Below the pieces are notes generated by a model. The model saw nothing but the letters and a program-made list of their open reading frames with translations, was not told the origin of the DNA and did not search any database. The position numbers and the translations under genes were made by a program. 64,000 bases of DNA from Pristiophorus japonicus. Its lineage: Eukaryota. This document shows, piece by piece, positions 6,603 through 58,644 of this stretch; position 1 is the first letter of the stretch, and the number at the start of each line of letters is the position of its first letter. The DNA lies in contig NC_091981.1 of assembly GCF_044704955.1 (NCBI RefSeq), forward strand, positions 287,432,001 to 287,496,000. Reading direction: 5' to 3'.

Positions 6603-6751
6603 GGGAACTTGTGGAAAAGGTGAAGTGATTTAATGCCTTATGGGGAGGGGGCCTCAACATCTTCCTGGAAGGCTCAGTTTTAACACCACACCAGTCAGAT
6701 GCCCTGGCCTGCACCCATTGCTCCACATAGTACAAAGTACTACTCATATTC

Positions 6752-9700: not shown

Positions 9701-11402
9701 GGGCACTGAAAACTGCACCGATGCACTCAGCAGGCTCCCACTAGCCACCACCAAGGGGCAACTGAGCATGCTGCTGAGATGGTCATGGCTGTTGAAGCTT
9801 TCGAAAGCGAAGGCTCACTCGTGACAGCACGTCAGATCAAAGTCTGGACAAATAGAGACCCGCTACTGTCTTTAGTCAAGAAATGTGTCCAGAATGGGGA
9901 CTGGGCAGCCACGTACGGGGCATGCCCTGAGGAATTTAAACCATTTCACAGGCGCAAGGATGAACTCTCGATTCAGGCCGATTGCCTACTATGGGGAAAC
10001 CGAGTAGTCATGCCCCAGATGGGCAGAGAGGCGTTCATCCGAGAACTCCACAATGAGCACCCGGGCATTGTTATGATGAAGGCAATTGCCAGGTTACACG
10101 TTTGGTGGGTAGGGATAGATGCAGACCTGGAACTTTGTGTTCGCAAGTGCAACACGTGTGCCCAGCTGGGCAATGCACCCAGGGAAGCCTCCCCTAGCCC
10201 CTGGTCCTGGTACGCCAAGCCATGGTCACGCATCCATGTGGACTACGCAGGTCCTTTCATGGGAAAAATGCTTTTGGTTGTAGTAGACGCCTACATTCTC
10301 AAGTGTGACATTCTCAATTCAAACACATCCTCTGCCACGGTAGAAAGTCTATGGGCAATGTTTGCCGCCCGTGGTCAACCGGACGTCTTGGTCAGCGACA
10401 ATGGCCTGTGCTTCACAAGCATTGAGTTCAAGGACTTCATGGCAGGCAATGGAATCAACCATGTCAGAATGGCACCATTCAAGCCAGCCTCAAATGGTCA
10501 GGCGGAATGAGCAGTGCAGATAATCAAACGAGATGCTCAGAATCCAAGGGGGTTCCCTAAAAAGCTGCTTATCACGCCTCCTGTTGGCCAATAGATCCCG
10601 ACCACATTCGCTCACAGGGGTTCCACCCGCAGAGCTGCTAATGAAAAGGACGCTCAAAACCAGGTTATCCGTTATACACCCCACCATGAAAGAAATTGTT
10701 GAGCGCAGGCGCCGGTCACAATGTGACTACCATGACGGGAATGCGAGGGTGCGATGTATTGATGTCAATGACCCTGTCTTTGTCCTCAACTGCGCTGCAG
10801 GGCCCAAATGGCTCAAAGGCACTGTGATTGCCAAAGAGGGGAATAGGATGCTGGTAGTTAAACTTACCAATGGACAAATCTGCCGCAAACATGTGGATCA
10901 AACAAAAAGGAGGTTCAGCAACCCCAAAGAAGAAGCAGAGGAAGAACACGATGTTGAGTTCACCCCTCCACAGGTGACCGAACACCGGAACCAAGTGGAG
11001 GAGAGCCCAGTCACTGTGGGCAGTCCGGACAGGCCTGAGGCACCGCAACCAGCAGACACTCAGGCCAGCGCCCAACAACCGGAGCCCCAACTCAGGCACT
11101 CTACAAGGGAGCGTAAACCACCAGAAAGACTTAACCTGTGATCCCAATAAGACTTTGGGGGGAAGGTGATGTCATGTATTCAACTGTCATTGTTACCCAT
11201 GTATAAACTGACCTAAGTTGTACACTGACCACTAGGTGGTGAACTTGTGGGAGACACTCCTAACCTGGATTTTCAGGTATAAAAGGGGAAGCTCCACCCA
11301 CCTTCATCACTTCAGTGCTGGCTAAGAAAGGAGTGGTCACAGAGTGACCTTCTCTGCAGTAAGGGCTCGTGTGCATTTGTACTGTATAGTAAGGACATAT
11401 CA
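6752..11402 (+). mobile_element. Full-length Ty3/Gypsy LTR retrotransposon, decayed
   Basis: LTRs 6752-6998 and 11170-11402; PBS tggcgacgag at ~7000; PPT ggggggaaggtga; perfect TSD TATTC at 6747-6751 and 11403-11407. Confidence 0.96.
7034..11141 (+). pseudogene. Gypsy gag-pol, multiply frameshifted
   Basis: Protease LDTGA, RT (WASPIVP, ICGDYK, KLDL, PFGI), RNase H (PVAYAARSL, EKEALA), integrase (H-x-HPG, C-xx-C, RIHVDYAGP, SDNG) in PR-RT-RH-IN order. Confidence 0.93.
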
Positions 11403-25461: not shown

Positions 25462-28400
25462 TGTAATGTCTGTAAGCTTGTAATGTTGTAATGTTTGTAG
25501 CGCCACACTGTGAGTGTGGACGTATTGTGTATTGCAACTGCAGGGTTAATAATAAACGGAACCAAGCAGATTCCGGAGGCTTCCGAGAGAGCTACCTGCC
25601 ATGTTAGGAGCTGTGTGTGCTGTGTTTCACTGCAAATAACATAATCGAAGTTCCAGACAATGCAGTCCAGAACCAGGCTGTGTTGGAATGTAAGAGAGCG
25701 ATCTTCTTATCGGAGGCAGGTCCGGCATTGTATGACACTCTTGTAAATCTGCTTGTGCCTGACGAGCCAAAGGACACAATGCTTAAAGAGATAGTAATGA
25801 AGCTGGAGCAGCACTATAACCCCAAACCGTTAGATATTGCTGAATCGTTTCAGGATTCGGAATCAAAAGACTGAAGGAGTATCAGTGATTACATCGTTGC
25901 ATTAAAAAAGCTATCGATGCACTGTAACTTTGGAAACTTTCAAAACCGAGCATTACGGGATCGTTTTGTTTGTGGGGTGAAAAATGATGCGATCAGAAGG
26001 AAGTTATTGACGACGGATGACTTGACTTTTGAGATTGCTTGTCAGACAGCGAGGTCGATGGCCATGGCCGAACAATATTCCCGAGAATTAAATAATAATT
26101 ACGGTCGTCAGTCAACCGAAGTAAATCACCTGCAGGTTCAAAGTAAAAGATGGTGGAGGCCCAAAGTCTCAGAGACTGGAAATTCTACCAGAGCATCGAA
26201 GTCGTGCTATAGGTGCCTGGGACAACACATTGCTCAAAGTTGTCCATACGTGAAGGCAGAGTGTTTCTTCTACAGGAATACTGGGCATCTTGCGAAGGCA
26301 TGCTGACTGAAGGGTAAACCAGCTTTTAAAGCTATGAGTCCAGTGTTCAAAGCTATGAGTAGAAATCCCAAGAGGCTACATAGCATGGAAGAACAACAAC
26401 AGGACGAGGAGATGTTAGAGGAGCACGAGGTTAATGGACAGCGATTCGGAAATCATCCAAATCCACATAGATGTTGCGGGATTCAAGATACCAATGGAAA
26501 TTGACACGGGTGCATCCGTGAGTGTAGTACCGGAGTCACTATATCGCGACAAATTGCGTGATTTCCAACTGGAGAAATCCAAGTTGGAGCTGTGAGGCTA
26601 CTCGGGAGAGAAAATTCCTGTGGTAGGTCGTATCACCGCACCGGTGAAATGTAAAGATCAATTTCAGAACTTGCCTCTAATAGTAGTGAAAGGAGACAAA
26701 CCTGCCTTACTAGGAAGAAATTGGTTGAGCTCACTGAAGCTGGATTGGAGTAAGATTTTCTGTGTGGAAGCGAGATTTTCATCAACAGATGGTGTTCTGC
26801 GAAACGGGCAGTCCGATCCAAGGCTTCAAGGCGAGTGTCAGGGTACAGAAGGACGCTAGATCGGTTTACTACAAGCCACATTCCGTACCATATGCACTCA
26901 AGGAGAAAGTTGAGCAAGAACTCAAAAGACTAGAGACGGAGAACATTATTTGTAAGATAAATCGATGTAATTGGGCTACACCCATTGTTGTTGTACCTAA
27001 GTCCGATGGTAAGGTAAGATTGTGTGGTGATTATAAAGTAACCGTAAACCAGGTTCTACAGGGTAATGTCCCCAATACATTGCCAAATATAGAAGATTTG
27101 TTCACAACACTGACAGGTGGTCAGATCTTCTCAAAACTGGATCTTACGAATGCCTACTTACAGCTTGAACTAGATGAGGAGTCCAAGTCATGTTTGACTA
27201 TAAATACTTATCTAGGCCTATATCAATTTAATAGGCTACCGTTTGGAGTGTCTTCCGCCTCTGCCATATTCCATGGGGCGATGAACCAGATTTTGCAAGG
27301 TATTGAAGGGGTAGTATGTTATTTGGATGACATACTAATTTCTGCACCAAATAGGCAAATTCATAATAACATATTGAATGAAGTCCTCAAACGGCTAGAG
27401 AAGCACAGAGTACGAGTGTCTGCTCGTAAGTGTGAGTTATTTAAAAACTCAGTGGAGTACTTAGGGTACAGAGTAGACAAAGGTGGTTTACATCCGACCA
27501 AGGAAAAACTGGATGCAATCAGAAATGCACCCACTCCCAGGAATGTCACTGAACTTCATTCATTCTTGGGTCTTTTGAACTATTATGGGAAGTTCCTACC
27601 AAATTTGGCTACAGTATTACGTCCACTGAATGAACTTTTGAAAAAACAGGTCCAGTGGAAGTGGTCAAAAGAATGCGATACAGCATTCAAGGAGTGTAAA
27701 AGCAAATTGGTAGAGAGCACCATGTTAGTTCACTATGACATATCTAAGGAGATTAAGTTAGCATGTGATGCCTCTCCGTATGGAATTGGGGCAGTGATTT
27801 TTCATGTATTAAGTAGTGGGGAGGAGAGACCAATTGCTTTTGCTTCACGCACTCTCAGTACCAATGAGAGTAATTATGCGCAAATTGAAAGGGAAGCTTT
27901 GGCATTAATTTTTGGGGTCAAGAACTTTCACAAATACTTGTATGGTCGTAAGTTTACCATCGTTACGGACCATAAGCCCCTAACAGCAATCCTCCATCCA
28001 AAGTCCCCAGTTCCAACATTAGCTGCAGCCCGAATGCAGAGATGGGCTTTGATTTTGTCAGCATATACATATGATATTGAACACAGACGATCAGCTGATC
28101 ACAGTAATGCTGATGCAATGTCTAGATTGCCTTCCCCATCACGGGTTACACCCGATAGGGAAAAAGTGTTTTATTTTTCATACATTGATGAACTGCCAGT
28201 CACAGCTGGGGGAGATTGGTAGAGCAACCAAATGTGACCCAGTGATACCAAAGGTGTATGATTATATTGCAAATGGATGGCCAAACCAGGTAACATACAA
28301 AGATACACATCTATTCTTCATTCGTAGGAATGAATTATCAGTCGATAAAGATTGTATCATGTGGGGTGCAAGAGTGGTTATACCAAATAAGTTCAGGTCC

Positions 28401-29907
28401 AAATTATTAGGAGACCTCCATGACCAGCACCTGGGAATGTGCTTGACCAAGAGTTTTGCACGCAGTTATTTATGGTGGCCAGGTCTTGATAAAGATATAG
28501 AGTACATCGTGAGTCAGTGTACGACATGTCAATCGGTAAGCAAGCAACCACCACCAGTACCATTACAGCCATGGAAATGGCTTCCCAGGGTGTGGCAAAG
28601 GCTACATATTGATTTTGCTGAGTTAGAAGGACAACAATTGTTCATTGTGATTGATAGCTATTCGAAGTGGGTTGAGGTGTTTCCAACGTGAAAAATAACA
28701 GCAAGTAAAACATTAGACAGTTTACAAAAATTATTTTCTTCATTTGGCCTCCCTGAAGAAATTGTTTCGCATAATGGACCACAATTACGTTCAGAAGAAT
28801 TTGCACAATTCACGAGCAAAATGGTGTGAAACATACCAAAGTTCCACCATAACACCCTGCCTCGAATGGTGCAGCAGAGCACACTGTACAATTGTAAAAC
28901 ATGCCCTCATAAAACAAATGTTAGCTCCAAATCCAAGGAAACGACAGTTGTCATTGGATCACAAATTGGCTAATTTTTTGATTACATATTGAAATACTCC
29001 TCATACAACTACTGGTAGAACAACAGAGTTGTTTCTCAAAAGACAGCCACAAACCAGATTTTCGTTGTTAAAGCCAAATTTTTCACAGTCCGTAGAAGAG
29101 ACACAATTAAGACTGAAAAAGAATCATGATAGAGGAGTAAAAGAGAGAAGTGTGAAATTAAACCAGAAGGTAAGAGTGAAGAACCATCACCATAAATGGT
29201 TAAAGTGGTTACCAGGAAGAGTTGTGAAGATATGTGGTCCTCGCACATATTTGGTGAAGATGTTTGATAATGGACAGGTTAGGTTTGTTCATATTGATCA
29301 TATTTTACCGACAGACAAGGAAGGAGTTGAAGGTGGGAATGATTCAATTATTTCTGACTCACCAGATAGTATACACCAGAAGCAAATCCTAAATCCAATG
29401 TACTGGAAACAAATCCAGGAGAGAAGCAGAATGAAAGTCTGAGTCTGAGTCAGGAAAACAAAGAGCCTGACGTTAGAGTGAGTTCAAATGAAAATCAAGG
29501 AAATTCCGTGGAGGAAAACGTTCCTCAGGATGAGCCTCGAATGAGTTTAGATTCGACACCAGGTTTAGAAGGTTCTGTTCGAGAGCGAAGGTATCCTCTT
29601 CGAAACAGAAAACAAGTGGTAAAGTTAAATTTGTAAATATGGAAAAAAAATTAGTTTATATCCTGTGTTATGTATAATCATGAAAGTTATGTATGATGTT
29701 TATTATGGTGGCTTCTTCATTAAGGAGGGAGAAGTGTAATGTCTGTAAGCTTGTAATGTTTGTAGCACCACACTGTGGATGTGGATGTATTGTGTACTGC
29801 AAGTGCAGGGTTAATAATAAACAGAACCAGGCTGATTCCGGAGGCTTCCGAGAAAGCTGCCTGCCATGTTAGGAGCTGTGTATGCTGTGCTCTGTGAATA
29901 TATCACA
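25462..29907 (+). mobile_element. Ty3/Gypsy LTR retrotransposon, second family, decayed
   Basis: 5' LTR from 25462 (end, PBS and gag start deleted near 25624); 3' LTR 29735-29907; PPT aaggagggagaag; TSD ccctc/ctctc; gag zinc knuckle, IDTGA protease, RT YLDD, RNase H, integrase. Confidence 0.94.
26762..28222 (+). pseudogene. Gypsy RT-RNase H open segment (486 aa)
   Basis: WATPIVVVPK, LCGDYK, YLDDILI, LACDASPYG, TDHKPL; flanked by frameshifts and stops. Confidence 0.9.
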
Positions 29908-32724: not shown

Positions 32725-33330
32725 GTTCCTTGGTGATGTTTCGCGGCAGAGCGTCCGATTGGCTGGCTGGAACCACGTGACGCGATAAAAAGGCCGGTGC
32801 CGGGAGCGGCGCGGCCATTTTGAAGCGGCGGTTGACGGTTGCGGCGAGCGCGATTGAGGGAAGGAGGCAGCGGGACAGGGCCGCCTGTGGGTAAGGATTC
32901 GGCCTTGCTAAATTCCCACCAGCTGGAGGCGGAGGGGTCGGCTTTACCTAGCAGCCCGGGGCCGAGTGCACAGCACGGGGGGGGGGAGCCAGTCCGCGGG
33001 GGGAGAGAGGTGGGCGCGCTTTCAGTTGGCAGTGCCGGCCGGGGATTGAGTTCAGCTGTAATCGAGAGGCCTATCACAGGACTCGCCGATTGGGGGGGGG
33101 GCGGGGGGGACGCTGATTGGTTGCGGCACTCAGTGCGGGGTAATTGGCTGGTTCGGAGACGAGGGCCGCGCCCCATTAGCTGTTCCGGGGACTGGGGCCG
33201 CGCCCCATTGGCTGGTCCGGAGGCCGCGCCCCATTGCTTAGTCCGGAGTCCGCGCCCCATTGGCTGGTCCGGAAGCTGGAGGCTGCACCCCATAGGCTCG
33301 TCCGGAGGCACGCCACATTGGCTGGCTTGA
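32725..33330 (+). promoter_or_regulatory. CpG-island promoter and first exon of transposase-derived gene, copy 1
   Basis: ATTGG, E-box CACGTGAC, TATA-like gataaaa, YY1 gcggccattttg, donor G|gtaagg near 32890, tandem GC-box/CCAAT units; paralogous to 48215-48900. Confidence 0.8.
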
Positions 33331-34888: not shown

Positions 34889-35179
34889 CTCCAGTGTAGA
34901 CCAGAGGAGCCACAGTCATGTTGCTCAGTCTGGTGTATGTTTACTAAATGATCCTCTATTTTATTTATCTTGGTGAGTAACAGCAGGACCGGTCTGCCTA
35001 TGACCTTGTTTTTTCCTAATACTTGCTACATTGATGATGAGGGGATAGTTTGAGGCCTTCTTCAGTTCAAAGAACAAGGTTATGGAAATCTCATACATCT
35101 TGTGTTTATATTTGCTGAGAGCGTTAAAAATTCTGCTTTACCCATTTCAAACTAATTTACGAATTGCCCACTTTTACAG

Positions 35180-35289
35180 AGTCAACTACAATGGAACGCA
35201 TGGCTGTGACTTTATTTCCCTGATGTGAGTCTGCAGCAGATGCTTTGCACATCTATGGACATAGAATTTAGATTTCAAAGAAATGGCAG
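35180..35289 (+). other. Predicted exon supplying the start codon (ATG 35283) of copy 1
   Basis: Acceptor cacttttacag, ends gaaATGGCAG|gtatgt; in-frame TAG upstream; conserved at 52297-52406. Confidence 0.65.
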
Positions 35290-35994
35290 GTATGTATTCA
35301 GGATCATCCTGCTACATTTCATGTTCCTGTTCAACTGAGAAACATGCTAAACCATTCAGGGTCAACCATGTGGAGAATTGTGTAGTGTGGTACAGGTCAG
35401 GTTGGTAGGATTTCTTCCCTGGGGTATTTGGGTTTCAATGGCAGTCTGGCAGCCTTTGTGGTTACTTTCCTGTCCGTCTGCAAACTACCAGATTTATTGA
35501 TGTGGTCACCAGTGCTGTTCATTTGCCTCTGTTCCTTTGTGTGTCTCCATGAGACTGCCTTGTGTAGTTCATGTCTGAAAACCACCAGTGTAGCTCCTGC
35601 AATGGTTGGACTTGTCTCATGACTGCAGCTTTGTATTGCTCCTTTGCTTCCTTCCAGTTTATTAATCGTCTCAAACCCTGTCTTTATGTCCACCCTCCAC
35701 CCTCCCCATAAAGAGCCATACAATATTTATTTTGTTAAAAGGTGCTACTTAAATGCTAGTTGTTTCTGTTGTCCCCAGGGACAGCACGGGCCAGCCCACA
35801 CTGCGATCTATGGATAGTAGGAGCATGTGTGCGCACTAGGTCCGTGCAGCAGAGCTTGGTCTCCAGTCGTCATGGTTAACCCTTGCCACTGGACCAAGAC
35901 CTAGCTCTGTCAAGCATATGTGGTGGCTGGTGTGCAACGACCACCCCACGTTAAACGAATCCATGCACAGGCATCTTCCACCGTGCTGGTCACG

Positions 35995-37497
35995 GGAATG
36001 TGGGAAGGGAGGACCTTGAGACTATCACTAGGGGGGTAGTGTTGAACAGGTTAATGGATCTCAAGGTAGACAAGTCCCCTGTTCCTGATGAAATGCATCC
36101 CAGGGTATTAAAAGAGATGGCGGAAGTTATAGCAGATGCATTCGTTATAATCTACCAAAATTCTCTGGACTCTGGGGAGGTACCAGCGGATTGGAAAGCA
36201 GCTAATGTAACGCCTCTGTTTAAAAAAAGGGGGCAGACAAAAGGCAGGTAACTATAGGCCGGTTAGTTTAACATCTGTAGTGGGGAAAATGCTTGAAGCT
36301 ATCATTAAGGAAGAAATAGCGGGACATCTAGATAGGAAAAGTGCAATCAAGCAGATGCAGCATGGATTCATGAAGGGGAAATCATGTTTAACTAATTTAC
36401 TGGAATTCTTTGAGGATATAACGAGCATGGTGGATAGAGGTGTATCGATGGATGTGGTGTATTTAGATTTCCAAAAGGCATTCGATAAGGTGCCACACAA
36501 AAGGTTACTGTAGAAGATAAAGGTACGCGGAGTCAGGAAATGTATTAGCATGGATCGAGAATTGGCTGGCTAACAGAAAGCAGACAGTCGGGTCCTTTTG
36601 GGTCCTTTTCAGGTTGGAAATCGGTGGTTAGTGGTGTGCCACAGGGATCGGTGCTGGGACCACAACTGTTTACAATGTACATAGATGACCTGGAAGAGGG
36701 GACAGAGTGCAGTGTAACAAAATTTGCAGATGACACAAAGATTAGTGGGAAAGCGGGTTGTGCAGAGGACACAGAGAGGCTGCAAAGAGATTTAGATAGA
36801 TTAAGCGAATGGGCTAAGGTTTGGCAGATGGAATACAATGTCAGAAAATGTGAGGTCATCCACCTTGGGGGAAAAAAACAGTAAAAGGGAATATTATTTG
36901 AATGGGGAGAAATTACAACATGCTGCGGTGCAGCGGGACCTGGGGGTCCTTGTGCATGAAACTCTTTTTTTGTTTGAACTCAAAAAGTTAATTTGCAGGT
37001 GCAGCAGGTAATCAGGAAGGCGAATGGAATGTTGGCCTTCATTGCAAGAGGGATGGAGTACAAAAGCAGGGAGGTCCTGCTGCAACTGTACAGGGTATTG
37101 GTGAGGCCGCACCTGGAGTACTGCGTGCAGTTTTGGTCACCTTACTTAAGGAAGGATATACTAGCTTTGGAGGGGTTCAGAGACGATTCACTAGGCTGAT
37201 TCCGGAGATGAGGGGATTACCTTATGATGATAGATTGAGTAGACTGGGTCTTTACTCGTTGGAGTTCAGAAGGGTGAGGGTTGATTTTATAGAAACATTT
37301 AAAATAATGAAAGGGATAGACAAAATAGAAGCAGAGGTTGTTTCCGCTGGTCGGGGAGACTAGAACTAGGGGGCACATCCTCAAAATACGGGGGAGCCAA
37401 TTTAAAACCGAGTTGAGAAGGAATTTCTTCTCCCAGAGGGTTGTGAATCTTTGGAATTCTCTGCCCAAGGAAGCAGTTGAGGCTAGCTCATTGAATT
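35995..37497 (+). mobile_element. CR1 LINE, intronic, unit 1 only
   Basis: Fragmented RT ORFs 36000-37682. Confidence 0.92.
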
Positions 37498-37499
37498 TG

Positions 37500-37889
37500 A
37501 GTGAAGGTGGGGAGGGTTGGAGGCCATCGAGAGATTTGAGAACAGGGATGATTTTAAAATCAAGGCATTGTCAGAGCGAAAGCCAGTGTCGGTCAGAGAG
37601 CATGTGTGATGGGTGCCCTAAGTGGGGGTTCCGATATGACCCCGGGTGCGAGTTTGGATTCGGCCAGCAGAGTTTTGGATGAGTTGAAGTTTAGAAGGTG
37701 GAAGATGGGAGGCCGGCTAGGGGAGCACCGGAACAGTAGATTCGAGAGTTAACGAAGCCATTTAGGTTTTCCACAGCAAATGAGCTGAGGCAGGAGCGGA
37801 GACAGGCAATGTTCATCTCGGTGTCAAATAGGACACAAGGTTGCCAATCGTCTGGTTTAGCCTCCAACAGTGGTCAGGGCTGCAACAAG
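37500..37889 (-). mobile_element. Old L2-like fragment, the hAT insertion target; paralog at 52640-53013
   Basis: gagttttggatgagttgaagtttagaaggtggaagatgggagg shared between both units immediately left of the TIR. Confidence 0.55.
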
Positions 37890-37897
37890 GGCTAGGG

Positions 37898-37913
37898 CAG
37901 GGGTTCTCAACCT
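37898..37913 (+). mobile_element. Left TIR of Buster/Charlie hAT element, copy 1
   Basis: caggggttctcaacct preceded by 8-bp ggcTAggg with central TA. Confidence 0.85.
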
Positions 37914-38298
37914 CAGTACCCCCTAGGACAGGGGGTACTGAGGGAATGATCAGCCATGATCTTATTGAATGGTGGTGCAGGCTCGAAGGGCCGAATGGCC
38001 TACTCCTGCACCTATTTTCTTTGTTTCAACCAGGGATTTACTTATGTGGCTTGATGTCATAAAAATCTCAATGCTGTGAAGCGCCTTGGGACATTTCACT
38101 ACATTAATGGTACTATATAAATACAAGTTGCCGTACTACGTGCTGACTGCGCAGAAATTAACATTCTAATGTTATGTAATACATTCTTGCTTCAAGTGAA
38201 GGGTCGTAGAACTGTTTCAGCAGGAGCAAGATAAATGATAAAACAGGAAAAGTTGTTGTAAATACCAGATATGGATAAATGTTTGATTTGACCATCAG

Positions 38299-40187
38299 CC
38301 TCAGAACAACAACACCCACAGAGCGATGAGACAGAACTTCCTTCAAGTTCAACCTCAAGGGCTGAAGAGTGGCGAGAAGGTGGAAGTGTGCGCAAAAAAA
38401 GTAAAACGGCAAAAGTAAGACGATACCAAGACAGCTACTTGAATTTTGGTTTTATTTGTAATAAAAGTGGATACACACCTCAACCGCAGTGTGTAATTTG
38501 TGCACAAGTACTGGTCAATGAAGCTTTGAAACCCTCCAAATTACGGAGACATTTAATTACCAAGCATGAAATGTACAAGGACAAACACCGTGCCTTTTTT
38601 GAGCGAAAGGCTAAGGAACTGCCTGGGAGTACTGAAGTAGTAATGAAATCCACACCTACCGCTGATAAAAAGCTTGTCTCATCCTACTTAGTGGCGCAGC
38701 AGATTGCGAAAGCAAAAAGACCCTATACGGTTGCTGAGGAGCTGATAATGCCGTGTGCCATTGCAATCGTAAAGGAAATGTTTGGAGAGCAGGAGGCCCG
38801 GGAACTGGAAAAAATACCAATGTCAGATGACACTATCAAACGGCGGATTGGTTCAATGTCAGAAGACATAGTTTTGCAGTGCATCGATCGGCTGCGTGTC
38901 AGTGACTTTGCTCTACAGCTTGATGTGACCACAGACTTTTCTAAAAGGTCCCATTTACTCGTCTATGTTCGCTATGTGTGGAATAAGGAAATAAAGGAAG
39001 ACTTTTTGTTTAGCAAAGAGCTCAAGATAACAAAGTCAGAGGATATTTTCACATTGTTGGATGATTTCATGACTTCAGCAGAAATCAGCTGGACAAACTG
39101 CATTGGGGTGTGCACTGATGGGGCTGCAGCAATGACTGGAAAGCATTCGAGTGTTGTGCAAAAGATCAAAGCTGCTTCACCTGGCGCTATTTGGACACAT
39201 TGCTTTTTACACCGAGAGGCCCTTGCTGCGAAAGATATTGAGCCGGGTCTTCACGGTGTTCTCAACACTGCAGTGACTCTCGTTAATTTTATCAAGTCCA
39301 GAGCAAGGAACTCCAGGTGTTTTGATGCACTTTGTGAGGAGGTGGGTGCAGAGCACAATTCCTTGCTCATGCATACAAAGGCGAGGTGGCTCTCTCGAGG
39401 CAGAATGCTTACCCGTATATTTCATCTCAGGGGAGATGTTCACATTTTCTTAGCTGACAAGAAACCTGAACTTGCCGAGGTGCTGAAAGATGACGTGTGG
39501 CTGGCTAAACTGGCTTACCTCGCAGACATGTTCAGTGAAATGAATAAGCTAAATAAAGCTATGCAAGTTGAGAACACTCATTTTTTTGCCCAGCGTGGAA
39601 GAATTGACGCATTCAAAGGGAAACTGCAAGTGTGGAAGGTTCTTATCTCTGGGGGCACGGCAGATATGTTTGAGCTCTTGCATTCTTTCATTCAAGAAAG
39701 AAAAGTTAACTTTGACGCCATCAAACCACAGCTGGTAGCGCATCTTTCTGGTCTGCTCAACAAATTCAATACTTATTTCCCAGAACTCACGACGGAACAA
39801 TCTGCTGCATACCTGTGGGCTACAAACCCCTTTAGTGAGAATATTGAAGCGAAACTCCTAACCTCTGTCCCACCAAAGTTATTGGAAGAGCTCATTGACA
39901 TTTCATCCGACAGCTTCCTCAGAACCAAGTTCAGTGAGTTGCCGCTGGAGACATTTTGGTGTGAATGCTCTGACGAATACAGGACTGCTTCTTCTGCAGC
40001 ACTGAAAGTGTTGCTCCCATTTAGTACAACCTACTTCTGCGATGTTGGAGTTTCAGCAATGACGTTGATGAAAACTAAGAACCGAGGCAGGGTGAACATT
40101 GACCATGAAATGCGCGTGTGCTTGTCGAAGATACCTCCGCGCCTTGACAGAATTGTTGCTCAGCATCAGCAACTGGTTTCATATTAA
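38299..40187 (+). CDS. hAT (Buster/Charlie) transposase-derived BED-finger protein, ZBED5/ZBED8/FAM200/SCAND3-like, copy 1 main coding exon
   Basis: Uninterrupted ORF (track 38388-40187, 599 aa; open back to 38292) with BED finger C-x2-C...H-x4-H, FALQLD, CTDGA, HCFLH, RWLSRG, hAT dimerisation domain; 5' boundary is a predicted acceptor. Confidence 0.9.
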
Positions 40188-40264
40188 GTACGTAAAACAA
40201 ATATATTAAACATACGTTTATTTAGATATCTACAGAGAAAGTTCAATACAACAGAGCAGTGTAG

Positions 40265-42030
40265 TGATTTGGGTTTTTAAAAAAAAAGTGTGTGACCAGG
40301 AAGGGACAGAGTTTAATGGTAGCAGTGCAGCAGAGAATAAAGTCAAAGCAGGGAATAGTGGTAAAACAATTAAATTGAAGACTCTTTATCTGAATGCACG
40401 GAGCATTTGTAACAAGATAGACAAACTAGTGGCACAAATAGGAGATAAATGGGTTTGGTCAATTACAGAGACATGGTTGCAAAGTGACCAAGGTTGGGAA
40501 CTAAATGTTCCAGAGTACTTGACGTTTCGAAAAGACAGGCAGACTGCTAAATGAGGGGGGCGCGGTAGCCCTGATAACAAAGGATGACAAGGACAGCAGA
40601 GGGAATGGATCTCGGCTCGGAAGATCTGGAAGTAGAATCTGCATGGGTGGAGATGAGGAATAACAAGGGGGCAGAAAACACTGGTGGAACTAGTATATAG
40701 GTCCCCTAACAGTAGACTGTTGGACAGAATATTAATCAAGAAATAATAAGATCTTGTAACAAAGGTAATGCAATAATCGTGGGAGACTTTAATCTTCATA
40801 TGGATTGGACAAATCAAATTGGCAAAGGTAGTCTGGATGACGAGTTCATGGAATGCATTCGGGAAAATTTCCTAGAACAGTACATCATGGAACCAACAAG
40901 GGAACAGGCTATTTTAGATCTTATATTGTGTAATGAGACAGGGCTAATTAACAATCTCTTAGTGAAGGATCCTCTGGGGGCAGAGTGATCATAATACCAT
41001 AGAACTACTTTTGAGAATAACTTACTGATGCCTGAAACTAGATCTTTCAAACTTTAAATAAAGCCAATTACATAGGTATAAAGGGTGAGTTGGCTAAGTT
41101 GGAAAAATAGGTATGGCAGTAGATAAGCAGTGGCTAGCATTTTAAGAAATATTTCATCATTCTCAATAAAAATACATTCCATTGAGAAACAAAAACTCCA
41201 CAGGAAAAGTGATCCATCCATGGCTAACTAAAGAAGTTGAGGAGGATAGCATTAGATTGAAAGAAGAAGCTTATAATGTTGTGAAGAATAGGGTTAGGGT
41301 AAGCCTGAGAATTGGGAAAGGTTTCAGAAACCAGCAAAGGATGACCCAAAATTTGATTTAAAAAAAAGGAAAAAATAGACTTTGAGCGAAAACTAGCAAG
41401 AAATTTAAAAACTGATTGCAAGAGCTTCTACAAATATGTGAAAAGGAAGAGAGTAGCAAAAGTAAACATTGGTCCCTTAGAGGCTGAGGCAGGAGAAATT
41501 ATGGGGAATAAGGAAATGGCAGAAACATTAACTAAATATTTTCTATCTGTCTTCACAGTAGTAGATGCAAAAAACATACCTAAAATGGTGGGGAACCAAG
41601 GGTCTAATGAGGGTGAGGAACTTGATGTAATTCATATAAGTAGAGAAAAAGTATTAGACAAACTAATGGGACTAAAAGCTGATAAATCCCCTGGACCTGA
41701 CGGCCTACCTCCTCGGGTTCTAAAAGAGGTGGCTGCAGAGATAATGGATACATTGGTTTTGATCTTTCAAAATTCCCTACATTCTAGAACGGTCCCAGCA
41801 GATTGGAAGGTAGCAAATGTAACACCGCTATTCAAGAAAAGAGCGAGAGAGAAAACGGGGAACTACAGGCCAGTCAGCCTGACATCAGAAAAATGTCAGA
41901 ATCCATTGTTAAGGAAGTGGTATCATGGCACTTAAAAAATCATAACATGATTAGGCAGTCGTCATGGTTTTATGAAAGAGAAATCGTGTTTGACAAATTT
42001 AAGAGTTTTGTGGGGATGTAACTAGCAGGG
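40265..42030 (+). mobile_element. CR1 LINE including endonuclease region, decayed
   Basis: LYLNARSI, ITETWL, GDFN, ILDLILCN, KSPGPDG motifs. Confidence 0.9.
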
Positions 42031-42634: not shown

Positions 42635-42922
42635 TAGGATGATGCTCAGAGTTGTGTATCTTTACTTTCTATTTTAGATGTCATTAGAATTGGCTGTCCA
42701 CACTAATAATCTCCAGTGCAGACCAGAGGAGCCGTATCCATGTCACTCAGTCTGGTCTGCCTTTACTCAAAGGTTCGCTATTTTATGTTTCTCGTGCGAG
42801 CCACAGCAGGTCAGGTCTGCCTGTGACCTTGTCGCTTCCTAATACTTGCTCGATTGATGATGAGAGGATAGTTTGAGGCCGCCTTCTGATCAAAGAACAA
42901 GGTTATGGAAACCTCATACATC
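42635..42922 (+). repeat. Third, more diverged copy of the gene's non-coding exon/intron block
   Basis: gataggatgatgctcaga...ttttag...gaaacctcatacatc aligns to 34304-34388 plus 34896-35100 and to 51937-52210. Confidence 0.85.
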
Positions 42923-43334
42923 CTGCTGCATTGCGGAGGTAATGGGAGCTTTTAAATTCAGGTTTTCACCATTTGTTTAAAAGTTCCAATAACATATCGG
43001 AGTGCAGTCAGAATTGAAGGAGCGCAGAGTTCTCAGACGATTTTAGGGCTGGAGGCTGGGAGGGATCAGGAGGGATGAGACTTTTACATTCAAGGTGATA
43101 GTGGAATGGGACTTTGTGATTTATGGGGCAATAATCAATGACATGGAGCTCCTCACTACCTGTAGATTGTAAACTAATTCCTGTGCAATAAACAAGGTTG
43201 GTGCTTTGAAATGGGAGGCTAGTTCTTCTTCTGTGGCTTTGAGGCAGCTTGCTTTGGGAGCTTGAATCCTAAACATGAAGATGTAAATACCCAGGGATTT
43301 GTGGACTGATGTATTTTTTGTTCTTCCCCTGCAG

Positions 43335-43680
43335 GTATACCAATTGCAATACTGTCGGCAGGATAGCTCAATCCTGGAGCTGAGACTGACTGTGAACGTC
43401 CCCTCCCCCCACCATCCGATTTGGGTCACAAACTGTCGTATTGTGCAATGAAGTGGAAGACTGTGGTGATCAATCTGAAGCTCTACATCTAGTCATGGAT
43501 CCAGTTATGATGGGCAAGAAACGAGAGGCATTCAGGCAACGTAGAGGGGAGCCTGGGGATGTGTTCTGGTCAGTGAGAGGAAGCCGTGGACTCTTCAACC
43601 TGGACAGAAGGCACCTGAGCTGTATAGTACAGTTCGGAATACGGAAAATGCATTTCTGTAATACTGCAAATCCTGAGTAG
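43335..43680 (+). other. Duplicated downstream exon-like block, copy 1
   Basis: Strong acceptor tttttgttcttcccctgcag; paralog at 56867-57217; reading frame broken. Confidence 0.6.
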
Positions 43681-44894
43681 GACAAAGGGCACGTGTTCAA
43701 ACAGTAAATTTAAGACTGATGCTCTTCCCCTCGTGATCAATATTGGGGGAAAGTCGTCGTCATCATCATCATCATCATAGGCAGTCCCTCAGAATCGAGG
43801 AAGACCTGCTTCCACTCCTAAAGTGAGTTCTTTGGTGGCCCTCCTGTATGGATCAGAGGCATGGGGGAAAGTAGGCATGGACTAAATACAGAGTTTGAGA
43901 GTTCAGAGCCCACCACGGGCAGTTTGAGATTCTGAATTCAGTTTAACGCTGGTCGATACAAAAACAGGTATTGGTAAAGGTGACCTTGAAGCTGTTGGAT
44001 TGTTGTAAAACCCAACTGGTTCACAAATGTCCTTCAGGGAAGGAAAACCTGCTGTCCTTATGGGTCCAACCTGCATGTGACTCCAGTCCCACACCAATGT
44101 GGCTGAGGTGGCCTCGCAAGCCATTCAATTGTATCAAACTGCGAGCAGCAGTCCAGGGAAAGGCCCACCATCTATGAGCAATAAATGCCAGTGATGCCCA
44201 TAACCTGAGAGTGAAGGAAGATACATGGAGTGGACTCTGAAATAGAGCAGTGAAGGTTTAAAAATCCCTGCAACAGCTAAACCGTTAGATGCAGGATGGA
44301 GGTGGACTTTCTCGATGAATGGGCTGAACAGCCTTCCTCATCTGTGCAGCATTTTCTCCTCGAGCTGAGTTTCTGTGGAGGCAATTTATTGGAAGCAAAC
44401 GTTCGAGCTGCACATGGCAGATTTAACTTGGATACATTGAACTTTTCCATAATCCGTTTGCACCTTCCTCAAGTATTTACTTGCGAGTATTTACAATTTA
44501 CTATCATTGTCCATTTGAGGTTGTATAATTGTGATGTTTTACTTTGTATTTTTTAAACAAGCACACATTTAAATGCTACACTAACTTAATTGATTTAAAT
44601 AAATTATTGTGTTTTACATATTCCCTGTTTACAGCAGCTTCAGTCTGTGGCAATGTTTATGCTCCACACAAGTCTCCTCCCACCTTGTTTTATCTCATCC
44701 TATCAACATACCGCTTTCACTCTGTACTTGTCTTGCTTGCCCTCTTGTTTCTATTCACACTAGTGACTCATTCCCTCCTCATCACCTATCTTGCTCTCTC
44801 TGGGCCATCGGTCACTTTCTTTAATTCCACTACAGTTTGGCTTCTCACTCTGCAAGAGGTTATTACACAAAATTAGGACATGGGATTGGGAGTA

Positions 44895-48163: not shown

Positions 48164-48214
48164 GCCGTGGCTGGAGGACCTCCGTCCCTTGTGCTGCGAT
48201 GCGAACCATCTTGC

Positions 48215-48900
48215 AGCTTCCGCAGCTCCTTGGTTATGTTTCGCGGCAGAGCGTCCGAGTGGCTGGCTGGCACCACGTGACGCGGTATAAATGTCGGTGT
48301 CGGGAGCGGCGCGGCCATTTTGAAACGGCGGTTGAAGATGGCGGTGAGGTGAGCGAGTGAGGCAGCCGGTCAGGGCCGCCTGTGGGGGAGGATTCGGCCT
48401 TAGTGAGTCTCCCCCCGGTCCGAGGTTGTAGGGCGGAGGGGGGCGGAGGCTTCACCTTGCAGCCCGGGTCCGAGTGTACAATATTGGGGAGGGCCGGCGG
48501 GCCGCGGGCAGGGAATGGCGGCGGAGGGGGGCGTCTCCCCGCGGGCTCGAGCGCGCTTTCATTTGGCAGCGCCGGCCGGGGCTCGAGCTGGGCTGTAATC
48601 GGGAGACACGCAGCGCCGTGGTTAGCGGCTGGGGCCGCGCCCCATTGGCTGTGGGGGGGTGGGGGGCAGCGGTCGCGCCCTATTGGCTGGTCCGTCAGAT
48701 GGCATTGCGCTCCATTGGTTGGTCCTTGGGCTGGGGCCGCGCCCCATTGGCTGGTCCGGGAGCTGGGACCGCGCCCAATTGGCTGGGATGGGTCCGCGCC
48801 CCATTGGATGGTCCGTGGGTTGGGGCCGCGCTCCATTGGCTGGTCGAGTGCTGGGGCCGCGCCCCATTGGCGAAGCTAAGGTTGTCTTCCCGCTGGTGCA
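48215..48900 (+). promoter_or_regulatory. CpG-island promoter and first exon of transposase-derived gene, copy 2
   Basis: Same order as copy 1: CACGTGAC, TATAAA, YY1 gcggccattttg and aagatggcgg, gtgag donors, ggggccgcgccccattggctgg array. Confidence 0.8.
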
Positions 48901-51730: not shown

Positions 51731-52296
51731 ATGGAACTGAATCATCTATATGAGCGGGAATCTGGGAACAAAAGCATCTAGCAATATTCCGGATTGATTT
51801 TAATCTGCCTTCCTAGTTGCTGGACAAAGGAATTTGATGCTGATTTGTGCTTGGGAATCCATGGATTCAATGCTTGTAATGTTGATATTAAATGAATCGT
51901 TTTATTTCTTTACGAAATGTGAGAGTTCCATCCAAGGATAGGGTGATGCTCAGAGTTGTGTATCCTAATTTTCTATTTAGACCGCCTTAGAATTGGTTGT
52001 CTACACTAATAATCTCCAGTGTGGACCAGAGGAGCCACAGTCATGTTGCTCAGTCTGGTGTGTGTTTACTAAATGATCCTCTATTTTATTTATCTTCTGC
52101 GAGTCGCAGCAGGACCTTGTCTCTTCCTAATACTTGCTACATTGATGATGACGGGATAGTTTGAGGCCTTCTTCAGTTTAAAGAACAAGTTTACGGAAAC
52201 CTCATACATCTTGTTGCTGTGTTTATAGTTGCTGAGAGCATTAAAAATTCTGTTTTACCCATTTAAATCTAATTTACGAATTGCCCACTTTTACAG

Positions 52297-52406
52297 AGTC
52301 AAGTACAATGGAATGCACTGCTGTGACTTTATTTCGCTGATGTGAGTTTGCAGCATATGTTTTACACATCTGTGGACATAGAATTTGGATTTCAAAGAAA
52401 TGGCAG
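52297..52406 (+). other. Predicted exon supplying the start codon (ATG 52400) of copy 2
   Basis: Acceptor cacttttacag; ends gaaATGGCAG|gtgtgt. Confidence 0.65.
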
Positions 52407-53013
52407 GTGTGTATTCAGAATCATCCTGCTACATTTCATGTTCCTGTACAACTGAGAAACATGCTAAACCATTCAGGGTCAACCATGTGGAGAATTATGT
52501 AGTGTGGTACAGGTTGGGTTGGTAGGATTCCTTCCCTGCGGTATTTGGGTTTCAATGGCAGTCTGGCAGCCTTTGTGGTTACTTTCCTGTCAGTCTGCAA
52601 ATCACCAGATTTATTAATGTCACCAGTGCTGTTCATTCAAAGGTGGGGAGGGTTGGCGGCCATGGAGGGATTTGAGAATAGGGATAATTTTATCAAGGCA
52701 TTGTCAGAGCGGAAGCCAGTGTAGGTCAGTGAGCATGTGTGATGGGTGAATGGCCCGGGGTGGGAGTTCGGGGGGGCTGGGGCCCCCCCGGGTGGGAGTT
52801 AGGATACGAACGGCAGAATTTTGGATGAGTTGAAGTTTAGAAGGTGGGAAATGGGAGGCTGGCTAGGAGAGCATTGGAATAGTAGATTCAAGAAGTAATG
52901 AAATCAGGTTTTCCACAGCAGATGAACTGAGGCAGAGGCAGAGGCGGAGACGGGCAATGTTCATCTCGGTGTCAAATAGCGAACAAGGTTGCCAACAGTC
53001 TGGTTTAGCCTGC

Positions 53014-53158
53014 AACAGGGGCTAGGCCAGGGGTTCTCAACAGGGGCTAGGGCAGGGGTTCTCAACAGGGGCTAGGGCAGAGGTTCTCAACAGGGGTTCC
53101 CAACAGGGGCTAGGGCAGGGGTTCACAACAGGGGCTAGGGCAGGGGTTCTCAACAGGG
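53014..53158 (+). repeat. 25-bp tandem array built from the hAT TSD plus left TIR
   Basis: aacaggggctagggcaggggttctc x5 plus one partial unit. Confidence 0.92.
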
Positions 53159-53392
53159 AACGGTGAGGTGTCGAGGCGTCCACCAAAAGTAAGCATAGAA
53201 TGTGTAGGAAGGAAAGTAAATCTTCGTCCGTGTTTATTACGTACCGAGTGTGCAGAAGTCTGAGGTTATGTAATACATTCTTGCTTTATGTTAAGGGTCG
53301 TAGAACTGTTTCAGCAGGAGCAAGATAAATGACAAAACAGGAAAAGTTGTTGTAAATACCAGATATGGATAAATGTTTGATTTGACCATCAG

Positions 53393-55269
53393 CCTCAGAA
53401 CAACAACACCCACAGAGCGATGAGACAGAACTTCCTTCAAGTTCAATCTCAAGGATTGAAGAATGCCGAGGAGGTGGAGGTGTGCGCAAAAAGCTTAAAG
53501 TTTCAAGAACAAGGAGATACCAAGACAGCTACTTGAATTTTGGTTTTATTTGTAATAGAAGTGGATACACACCTCAACCGCAGTGTGTAATTTGTGCACA
53601 AGTACTGGCCAATGAATCGATGAAACCCTCCAAATTACAGAGACATTTAATTACCAAGCATCAAATGTACAAGGACAAACACCGTGCCTTTTTTGAGCGA
53701 AAGGCTAAGGAACTGCCGGGAACTACTGAAGTAGTAACGAAATCCACACCTACCGCTGATAAAAAGCTTGTCTCATCCTACTTAGTGGCGCAGCAGATTG
53801 CGAAAGCAAAAAGACCCTATACGGTTGCTGAGGAGCTGATAATGCCGTGTGCCATTGCAATCGTAAGGGAAATGTTTGGAGAACAGGAGGCCCGGGAACT
53901 GGAAAAAATACCAATGTCAGACGACACTATCAAACGGCGGATTGGTTCAATGTCAGAAGACATAGTTTTGCAGTGCATCGATCGGCTGCGTGACAATGAC
54001 TTTGCTCTACAGCTTGATGTGACCACAGACTTTTCTAAAAGGTCGCATTTACTCGTCTATGTTCGCTATGTGTGGAATAAGGAAATAAAGGAAGACTTTT
54101 TGTTTAGCAAAGAGCTCAAGATAACAAAGTCAGAAGATATTTTCACATTGTTGGATGATTTCATGACTTCAGCAGAAATCAGCTGGACAAACTGCATTGG
54201 GGTGTGCACTGATGGGGCTGCAGCAATGACTGGAAAGCATTCGAGTGTTGTGCAAAAGATCAAAGCCACTTCACCTGGCGCTATTTGGACACATTGCTTT
54301 TTACACCGAGAGGCCCTTGCTGCGAAAGATATTGAGCCGGGTCTTCACGGTGTTCTCAACACTGCAGTGACTCTTGTTAATTTTATCAAGTCCAGAGCAA
54401 GGAACTCCAGGTGTTTTGTTGCACTTTGTGAGGAGGTGGGTGCAGAGCACAATTCCTTGCTCATGCATACAAAGGCGAGGTGGCTCTCTCGAGGCAGAAT
54501 GCTTACCCGTATATTTCATCTCAGGGGAGATGTTCACATTTTCTTAGCTGACAAGAAACCTGAACTTGCCGAGGTGCTGAAAGATGACGTGTGGCTGGCT
54601 AAACTGGCTTACCTCGCAGACATGTTCAGTGAAATGAATAAGCTAAATAAAGCTATGCAAGTTGAGAACACTCATTTTTTTGCCCAGCGTGGAAGAATTG
54701 ACGCATTCAAAGGGAAACTGCAAGTGTGGAAGGTTCTTATCTCTGGGGGCACTGCAGATATGTTTGAGCTCCTGCATTCTTTCATTCAAGAAAGAAAAGT
54801 TAACTTTGACGCCATCAAACCACAGCTGGTAGCGCATCTTTCTGGTCTGCTCAACAAATTCAATAATTATTTCCCAGAACTCACGACGGAACAATCTGCT
54901 GCATACCTGTGGGCTACAAACCCCTTTAGTGAGAATATTGAAGCGAAACTCCTAACCTCTGTCCCACCAAAGTTATTGGAAGAGCTCATTGACATTTCAT
55001 CCGACAGCTTCCTCAGAACCAAGTTCAGTGAATTGCCGCTGGAGACATTTTGGTGTGAATGCTCCGACGAATACAGGACTGCTTCTTCTGCAGCACTGAA
55101 AGTGTTGCTCCCATTTAGTACAACCTACTTCTGCGATGTTGGAGTTTCAGCAATGACGTTGATGAAAACTAAGAACAGGGTGAACATCGACCATGAAATG
55201 CGCGTGTGCTTGTCGAAGATACCTCCTCGCCTTGACAGAATTGTTGCTCAGCACCAGGTTTCACATTAA
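53393..55269 (+). CDS. hAT (Buster/Charlie) transposase-derived BED-finger protein, copy 2 main coding exon
   Basis: Uninterrupted ORF (track 53482-55269, 595 aa; open back to 53386); same motifs as copy 1; 5' boundary is a predicted acceptor. Confidence 0.9.
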
Positions 55270-55402
55270 GTGGGTAAAACAAAAATATTAAAGATATAAA
55301 CTTAACTGCATAACACATTTTTTACAGAAAAAAAGCTTGTATTGTGTTACATTGTTGTTGATCGAGTTTTTATAACACGGGAGAAGGGGGTCTCATGCAG
55401 CA

Positions 55403-55418
55403 AGGTTGAGATCCCCTG
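55403..55418 (-). mobile_element. Right TIR of the hAT element, copy 2
   Basis: aggttgagatcccctg (reverse complement caggggatctcaacct) followed by ggcTAtgt, a 6/8 match to the left TSD. Confidence 0.85.
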
Positions 55419-55497
55419 GGCTATGTATTGACATGGCAGCAACAATGGCACTTAATGTTACCAATTAATATTGCGTGATGATCTTAATTCATCACAT

Positions 55498-56760: not shown

Positions 56761-56866
56761 TAAGGGATGGAGGGAGGGAGGCGGGTGGAGTCCAGTGCGT
56801 GCATGCGCAGAAGGACACACAAAAAACTTGAAAATTATCACTTTGTTTATTTTTCTTCCCTTGCAG

Positions 56867-57217
56867 GTATATCAATTGAAATACTGTCGGCAGGATAGCT
56901 CACTACTGGAGCTAAGACTGACTGTGAACGTCCCCTCCCCCACCATCCAATTTGGGTCATAAACTGTTGTGTTGTGTAATGAAGTGGAAGACTGTCGTGA
57001 TCAATCTGAAGCTCTACATCTAGTCATGGATCAAGTTGTGGTGGCAAGAAACGAGAGGCATTCAGACAGTGTAGAGGGGAGCTTGGGGCTGTGTCCTAGT
57101 ACCAGTGGGAGGAAGGCGTGGACTCTTCAACCAGGAAAGGAGGCACCTAACATCACCTGAGGTGTACAGTTAAAAGGAATGGAAATTGCATTTCTGTAAT
57201 ACTGCAAATCCTGAGTA
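56867..57217 (+). other. Duplicated downstream exon-like block, copy 2
   Basis: Acceptor tttttcttcccttgcag; paralog of 43335-43680; internal TAA. Confidence 0.6.
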
Positions 57218-58644
57218 GGGATTTCATGGCCTTCTGTGGGAGAGGGAGAGGGAGAGACTGGGGAGGGGGATATGAAGGACCTATTTCCCTAACAGAGAGG
57301 TCAATAACCAAGGGGCATAGATTTAAAGTAATTGGTAGAAGGATTGGAGGGAATTTTTATTTCACCCAGAGGGTGGTGGGGGTCTGGAACTCTCACCACA
57401 TTTAAAAAGTACTTGGATGTGCACTTGAAGTGCTGTAACCTACAGGGCTATGGACCAAGAGCTGGAAAGTGGGATTAGGCTGGATATCTTTTTCAGCTGG
57501 CACAGACACGATGTGCTGAATGGCGTCGTTCTCTGCTGTAAATTTCTATGATTCTAATCACTTGGCTCCTCCAGACCTTATCACGCTTGTCATTCAGATA
57601 TGGATGGAAGAGCTGAATGCCAGAGAGGAGGTGTGAGCAGCTGCCATTAACATTAATGCGTTGATTGACCAACTGTTGCAACAAGAAGCTCCTGCAAAGT
57701 AGAAGCAAGATAGGGTCAAAGGGAAAAGCCTCCAGTGGTTGAGGTCATACCTCACAGAAAGGAAGATGGTTATGGTTCTTGGAGGCCAGCCATCATAGCC
57801 CCAGGAATCTCTCTGGGAATGGGACCATCCTCGGCCCAGCCATCTTCAGCTGCTTTATCAATGATCTTCCCTCTGTCGTAATGATATATAATTTTATTTT
57901 GTATCATGTATGAAGCGCCTAATGCAGTTTTATTTTATATTTGCTTACATAATTAGAGCTAGCACATCACGCCTGAGCTCTCTGACTTAGATTAAACAAC
58001 GCCTCGATTTCTTAATTCTCATCATTGTTTTCAAATTCCTGTCTGGTCTATCTCTAGAGAAGAGGATTCTGCCAATGTAGCAGTGAAGGCGGAGGCAGTA
58101 GCGATATTGGATAAAGAGGATGTACTTGGGGTTGGCAGTCCTCAAAGTAGAAAAATCACCTGGTCCGGATTGGATGTACCCTAGGTTACTGAGGGAAGTA
58201 ACGGTGGAAATTGCAGAGGCTCTAGCCACAATCTTCCAATCCTTGCATATGGAGGTGGTCCCAGAGGACTAAAGGATTGCAAATGTTGTACCTCTGTTTT
58301 AAAAAAAAAAGGAGAGAGTGAGAAATGAATCCGGCATCTACAGGCCAGTCAGCCTAACATTGGTGGTAGGAAAACTTTTAGACAATTCTGGACAAAGTTA
58401 ATTGGCATTTGGAAAAGTGCTGAAATGGGCAAAAACATGGCAAATGAAATTTAACACACAAAAGTGGAAAGTGAATCATTTTAGTCGGAAGAATGAGGAA
58501 AGGCATTATGAACGAAATGGTACAATTGTAAAGGGGGTGCAGGAACAGAGGGATTTGTATGTACACAAATCCTTGAAGTTAGCAGGACAAGTTGAGAAAG
58601 CTGTTATAAAAGCATTAAATATCCTCTGCTTTATAAACAGGCAA

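Follow-up and report, generated by a model that had tools for sequence, protein, structure and literature searches.

Likely splice capture of a Buster-type transposase by a SNORA9-like small nucleolar RNA host locus in Pristiophorus japonicus

We analysed a stretch of 64,000 nucleotides (nt) from Pristiophorus japonicus (contig NC_091981.1, positions 287,432,001 to 287,496,000, forward strand), hereafter the window. It is a vertebrate sequence rich in long interspersed nuclear elements (LINEs) and carries two long plus-strand open reading frames (ORFs), 38292-40187 and 53386-55269, which are 96.5% alike. The two ORFs belong to two copies of a Buster-type hAT transposon. Transcripts splice a short host exon with an ATG onto the transposase frame. 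It is likely that an intronic element of this type was captured by a host gene for SNORA9-like small nucleolar RNAs (snoRNAs), and that the window holds two protein-coding genes as a result. The features on which this reading turns are listed below in window coordinates.

35180..35289, + strand: host ATG exon of unit 1 (110 nt), with the ATG at 35283 (GAAATGG), a phase-1 donor and five upstream ATGs; a homologous exon was seen spliced
38271..38291, + strand: the element's own ATG and in-frame TGA (from CGA) in copy 1, now intronic, as read in the sequence
38299..40187, + strand: transposase exon of copy 1, giving a 631-amino-acid product (P0122) with D211 and D276 kept, E584 changed to D and F587 changed to V
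52297..52406, + strand: host ATG exon of unit 2, with the ATG at 52400 and four upstream ATGs
53365..53385, + strand: the element's own ATG and in-frame TGA in copy 2, intronic, read in the same way
53393..55269, + strand: transposase exon of copy 2, giving a 627-amino-acid product (P0001) with a hAT fold

A previous sequence-only reading of the window had proposed that the transposon's own start is dead in both copies and that the host exon donates an in-frame ATG by splicing. The native ATG (38271 and 53365) and the TGA following it in frame (38289 and 53383) were confirmed at the positions it gave. As it had also described, the host ATG (35283 and 52400) lies in a strong Kozak context, GAAATGG, with an in-frame stop before it, a TAG within the ATG exon. 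When the donors (CAG/GTATGT and CAG/GTGTGT) are joined to the acceptors at 38299 and 53393, the frames begin with MAASE, run for 631 and 627 amino acids and have one terminal stop each. The junction predicted for copy 2, 52406>53393, was present with GT..AG ends in contigs of all four sequencing runs, which came from three studies and three organisms (A, B and C). The joint was first placed as 52403>53390; cutting at GT..AG, three places to the right, gives 52406>53393. The four runs were compared with 51990-55400, that is, with copy 2, and the joint of copy 1, 35289>38299, rests on the identical site and on protein P0122. The caveats raised in the previous reading are real: the pyrimidine tract before the acceptor is weak (55%), upstream ATGs are present, and in-frame AGs compete with the acceptor in copy 1 (38221, 38224, 38227, 38269 and 38305) and copy 2 (53315, 53318, 53321, 53363 and 53399), the last of each series being the AG noted 6 nt downstream. 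Among the 15 joints listed of 19, none led to an upstream AG that would include the stop, which was the outcome named in advance as contrary to the proposal, and none led to 53399.

Contigs of organisms A and B were about 92% alike and contained no gap over 396 and 454 nt from the joint. The same joint in these two organisms points to an orthologous, expressed gene in other species (the contigs are partial and their RNA status is guessed). We infer that the runs hold spliced RNA because GT..AG joints occur here and because contigs of an E2F gene run from exon to exon. In two of the four runs the same donor (52406) was also joined to the transposase of a third unit upstream of the window, and 'back' joints connected one copy of the ATG exon to another.

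Selection on the two frames was judged against decayed relatives. A genome search with the 5' end of the element gave 40 matches, from which 20 loci were fetched; 18 of these belong to the family, and the counts are lower bounds. Two loci (L097 and L098) fell outside the family and were excluded, and L096 lacks the 5' end, so that 17 siblings retain the start region. The 18 siblings are 72-89% alike to a copy on contig C7 and all are broken; there were no young, near-identical dispersed copies. They contain 55 stops in 4723 codons and 134 frameshifts in 15,294 nt, with a pooled ratio of nonsynonymous to synonymous substitution rates (dN/dS) of 0.80. About 24 lesions are expected per ORF length, and none was seen in the window ORFs; for copies of equal age the Poisson probability of zero is 4e-11. 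Both window ORFs are free of stops and of net frameshifts, with dN/dS values of 0.39 and 0.36 and Fisher p values of 2e-4 and 4e-5. The five indels of copy 1 each have a length divisible by three, and the two non-triplet alignment gaps of copy 2 add up to twelve. Between the window copies the dN/dS of the core was 0.14 (0.04-0.40). Since duplication, the core has accumulated 7 replacement and 12 silent changes and the first 125 codons 20 and 6 (p 0.013), which, in these small numbers, suggests relaxed or diverging DNA-binding ends. The open frames and the purifying selection appear to exceed what the neutral siblings show, subject to a caveat on dS given below, and this selection points to translation from the host ATG.

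The siblings also indicate where the splice site and the stop came from. The acceptor AG is kept in 14 of the 17 aligned siblings, and the codon at the stop is CGA in 11 of them, as it is in a copy on contig C28, and TGA in two. The ancestral element therefore already had the acceptor, and the stop is a product of ordinary CpG decay, in keeping with the CGA>TGA origin suggested before. With the acceptor ancestral, the most likely time for the stop to have appeared is after capture, when its site had become intronic. The junction upholds the splice-capture reading, which needs correction: the ATG exon belongs to a SNORA9-like snoRNA host, the acceptor is ancestral to the element, and the stop probably followed the capture, so that the frame was not rescued from it by splicing.

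Copy 2 has terminal inverted repeats (TIRs) of 14 bp and 8-bp target sites, GGCTAGGG/GGCTATGT, and the C7 sibling is built likewise. The central TA of the target site fits the Buster rule. Short TIRs (14-16 bp) with an 8-bp target-site duplication characterize hAT/Buster elements, by the lengths given in PMC12637253, and copy 2 shows both. For copy 1 only the left TIR was found; no right TIR was present in 37400-41000 with three mismatches allowed. The upstream unit has no TIRs. Homologues start with MDK(Y/F)V(V/I)RP, the named database matches are SCAND3-, ZBED5- or FAM200-like, and the nearest relatives outside the species are 55-60% identical and element-like. Searches for shorter relatives, and for longer or fused relatives, found no close shark orthologue, the latter search being weak. 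A cluster of a different Buster family, about 40% identical and with some frames of 494 codons, lies at C11:136.5-137.8 Mb (L006, L011, L013 and others).

The joined products are letter-for-letter identical to P0001 (627 amino acids) and P0122 (631 amino acids), both named 'FAM200B-like, Pristiophorus japonicus'; the gene model is therefore already in automated annotation. Pfam at E<=0.001 gave nothing on the two ORFs, its matches all falling below the cut-off, and a sequence search of PDB gave nothing for them. A structure model built from a 113-sequence alignment reached a predicted local distance difference test (pLDDT) score of 87.9 and matched Hermes transposase best; a single-sequence fold (pLDDT 35) was left unused. 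The product has a BED finger with its ligands C67, C70, H87 and H92 kept, together with the hAT fold. We take D211, D276 and E584, assigned by alignment, to be the triad residues. Position 584 is E in 110 of 110 homologues and D here, so that the D-D-E triad is no longer intact, and position 587, F in all 110, is V here. A change of E to D would be expected to cripple DDE enzymes. A literature search for the catalytic residues of TcBuster gave nothing useful. The product is likely a domesticated, non-cutting DNA-binding protein.

The host exon is part of a putative SNORA9-like snoRNA host gene and not of a protein-coding gene. A genome search with the SNORA9 model (RF00411) gave eight matches, all at this locus on contig C5 (42 candidates scored); the best reached 64.1 bits with a genome-wide E of 2e-9 and covered model positions 1-133. 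All eight have the ACA box, and one, the sixth copy of the upstream unit, has a canonical H box. At the gathering level Rfam returned no match in the window, and the snoRNA was detectable by E-value alone. A conserved block had been considered as a host exon and later as a C/D snoRNA, and both candidates were dropped after the SNORA9 match over the full model. The segment before the ATG exon occurs nine times within 92 kb of C5 and nowhere else in a genome search. A search of the rest of the genome for a parent gene of the host exon or promoter found none, with one 59-nt match on contig C9. The ATG is invariant in all seven copies of the ATG exon and, when joined to host exons, opens a mini-ORF of 11-16 codons. 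In humans, intron 2 of the non-coding gene SNHG15 carries SNORA9; SNHG15 has MYC E-boxes (PMC6480895) and is a substrate of nonsense-mediated decay (PMC4233243).

The locus is triplicated on C5, and each of the three units is headed by one of three homologous CpG islands containing CACGTG. A probable last host exon stands 3' of the element in all three. The remaining features are as follows; coordinates without a contig name are those of the window.

32727..33302, + strand: predicted CpG-island promoter of unit 1, with an E-box CACGTG at 32774; its homologues are 48184-48845 and C5:287391086
34971..35100, + strand: intronic SNORA9-like H/ACA snoRNA of unit 1, 80 nt 5' of the ATG exon (Rfam RF00411, 46 bits, E 1.7e-6, full model), with the ACA box present and the H box degenerate
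37898..37911, + strand: left TIR of element copy 1, read in the sequence
42794..42923, + strand: another SNORA9-like copy of unit 1, on the 3' side of the element (43.4 bits, E 8.1e-6), with a broken H box
43335..43681, + strand: probable last host exon of unit 1, with a strong acceptor, called from sequence only; 3' end approximate
48184..48845, + strand: probable CpG-island promoter of unit 2, with an E-box at 48274
52096..52211, + strand: decayed SNORA9 copy of unit 2, with a 15-nt deletion in the 5' hairpin and no Rfam match at E<=0.05
53028..53154, + strand: tandemly repeated left end of element copy 2, with the last TIR at 53141-53154 and the 8-bp target site at 53133-53140
55405..55426, + strand: right TIR (55405-55418) and target-site copy of element copy 2, with 6 of 8 target-site letters equal to the left copy
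56846..57219, + strand: probable last host exon of unit 2, 86% alike to 43314-43681, called in the same way
C5:287391086-287413704 (L043-L046): upstream unit, with a promoter, five repeats of SNORA9 plus ATG exon, the element, a sixth SNORA9 and the last exon

In copy 2 the left TIR and its target site form six tandem repeats (53028-53154). Just 3' of both window promoters there are arrays of CCAAT/GC-box-like repeats (33140-33320 and 48620-48875), longer than those of the upstream unit.

The order in unit 1 is SNORA9, ATG exon, intact transposase and the second SNORA9; unit 2 has the deleted SNORA9, the ATG exon and the intact transposase, and lacks a second snoRNA. In the upstream unit the transposase is frameshifted after about ten codons, and 10 indels shift its frame within the first 350 nt; 518 codons further on are open, and the catalytic Glu is kept. 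These arrangements suggest that snoRNA and protein functions have been divided, the upstream unit keeping six SNORA9 copies with a frameshifted transposase and the window units keeping the ORFs while their snoRNAs decay.

The course of events may be pictured as follows. The element would have inserted in sense in a host intron, and its CAG acceptor, 28 nt past its own ATG, would have come into use for an alternative last exon. The start of the host mini-ORF would thereby have gained a frame of 630 codons, and the native start, now intronic, would have decayed. Tandem triplication of the unit from promoter to last exon and the division of labour described above would complete the scheme. The protein is predicted to act in sequence-specific DNA binding or chromatin regulation through its BED finger, at a level damped by the upstream ATGs.

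Several observations weigh against this reading. Junction support amounts to one contig per run, at depths of 22.8, 24.6, 10.2 and 24.6, and the library types of the four runs were guessed or not on record. Contigs of organism C showed no difference from the genome over many pieces; organism C is therefore probably P. japonicus itself and may be what the annotation was built from. The ATG exon holds four to five upstream ATGs, of which one stands in strong context and one or two overlap in another frame. All SNORA9 scores (43-64 bits) are below the Rfam gathering score of 85. SNHG15 synteny was not found with the one neighbour tested: CCM2_C matches lay on C7 and C12 and not on C5, CCM2 being presumably the human neighbour of SNHG15. 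By the column yardstick dS was raised (0.19 versus 0.12) and dN was modestly lower (0.07 versus 0.10), so that part of the low dN/dS may predate insertion. The frameshifted upstream unit keeps its 518 open codons with a near-identical middle part, from which it follows that gene conversion can also keep a frame open. With D211, D276, CxxH and W366 kept, the protein may have some residual catalysis.

Some of these points would suit an element that was only exonised in a non-coding snoRNA host, with little or no protein made and the frames open through recent duplication and gene conversion. The upstream ATGs, the conversion tracts and the 20 replacement to 6 silent differences in the first 125 codons fit such a state. 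So does the frameshifted upstream unit, which is spliced alike and whose joint contigs are deeper (67 and 48 versus 23 and 25, a poor measure). Conversion homogenises copies but leaves lesions, however, and none was seen where about 24 were expected; moreover, the indels are in-frame only, the core has 7 replacement to 12 silent changes, and orthologous contigs in two other organisms are free of gaps. We consider exonisation without a protein improbable. More improbable still is a functional gene that is translated from an internal Met or through another acceptor and for which the host ATG is incidental. Met 79, 94 and 153 are in frame, the pyrimidine tract is weak, and the upstream unit is annotated as a 509-amino-acid protein from an internal Met (P0121). 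But both window copies keep their first 93 codons, BED ligands included, in frame, against the 10 frameshifting indels of the upstream unit, and the host ATG combines a strong Kozak context with invariance in all exon copies. An internal start at Met 79 or 94 would cut the BED ligands or lose them.

A selfish, working transposase on a borrowed housekeeping promoter, with selection for mobility of the family, would account for the full-length ORF, the hAT fold, two of three acidic residues and both TIRs of copy 2. Against it stand E584D and F587V, two changes at positions that do not vary among 110 homologues, and the missing TIRs (the right one in copy 1, both in the upstream unit). The siblings are broken without young copies, and an ATG fixed in the host cannot move with the element. 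We hold this explanation to be very unlikely. Capture by the snoRNA host with translation from the host ATG is the reading that we prefer.

Two further siblings are constrained. At C7:58429212-58431541 (L004) a complete element with TIRs and target site occupies the last intron of an E2F gene, in the sense orientation. Its own ATG is frameshifted, its triad and BED finger are intact, and its constraint is the strongest of all copies (dN 0.034 versus dS 0.10). The E2F exon upstream has a phase-1 end, so that its frame would run on through the same acceptor. In organism A a contig runs from this exon through the intron into the element; the insertion is therefore shared. No E2F-to-transposase junction was found among the 7 joints listed in the four runs, in which contigs drop rare forms, and in three of the four the E2F exon goes to the normal last exon (loose ends listed). 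By its motifs and a six-residue tail we take the gene to be E2F6-like.

The C28 sibling (C28:14364136-14368161; L005, L055) occupies an intron of a T-box gene, again in the sense orientation, and reads ACG in place of its ATG. Its BED finger carries a 22-nt deletion, which brings a second AG into phase 1 and to a frame of about 570 codons, and the T-box exon upstream is in phase 1 as far as the bare sequence tells. The second-best genome match of this T-box gene adjoins an MGA domain on contig C4. In addition to the C4 gene with the MGA domain, a second T-box gene, MGA-like but divergent, lies at C28:14345001-14403000. E2F6 and MGA presumably both belong to Polycomb repressive complex 1.6 (PRC1.6), as DNA-binding subunits. 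Beyond the SNORA9 host, the Buster family might have been captured twice more, independently and through the same phase-1 acceptor, by the E2F6-like gene and the MGA paralogue, to give fusion proteins of PRC1.6 relatives; to this we assign a small chance. If true, sharks would carry E2F- and MGA-transposase fusions, the former with an intact triad, beside the stand-alone proteins.

The proposed capture resembles that of KRABINER, SETMAR and PGBD3-CSB in the intronic sense insertion, the acceptor from the element, the alternative last exon, purifying selection and later duplication, as set out by Cosby et al. (10.1101/2020.05.07.082677). Compared with the fusions described there, the shark host gives M-A plus one base and no domain, is a non-coding snoRNA host, and meets an acceptor inside the frame, after codon 9, whereas eight of their nine acceptors are upstream of the frame. 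With two residues from the host and an in-frame stop upstream, the shark genes lie outside that paper's definition of a host-domain fusion. Its survey covered tetrapod annotations, to which the present locus would add a cartilaginous-fish case. ZBED5, ZBED7, ZBED8 and ZBED9 (PMC3606216) and FAM200A/B are alike in having a Buster transposase with a BED finger and a kept RNase H-like core. In the ZBED genes the DDE triad is reported to be conserved; the shark proteins have DDD, and TIRs and target site are still visible. The shark genes are probably independent of ZBED/FAM200 in origin. Hermes (PDB 4d1q and others) has a similar fold (E 9e-11, template modelling score 0.44-0.56) at 15% identity, and is an active enzyme. 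SNHG15, as presented in PMC6480895 and PMC4233243, shares SNORA9 about 80 nt before an acceptor, short mini-ORF exons and a promoter E-box; the shark locus differs in its six to eight SNORA9 copies, embedded transposase exon and triplication.

Searches of open-access literature listed no paper that deals with these genes or with a snoRNA host capturing a transposase. What is new is the type of host and the division of labour; the splice-capture mechanism and the bare gene models in automated annotation are known. If the reading is right, a non-coding housekeeping snoRNA host has turned protein-coding, with promoter, splicing and mini-ORF start already in place, and the triplicated locus shows snoRNA and protein functions separating, with 18 dead siblings as a neutral control. 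Elsewhere in the window there are two broken bodies of Gypsy-like long terminal repeat retrotransposons (4714-11141 and 25875-29442), and fragments of CR1-like LINEs are abundant throughout.

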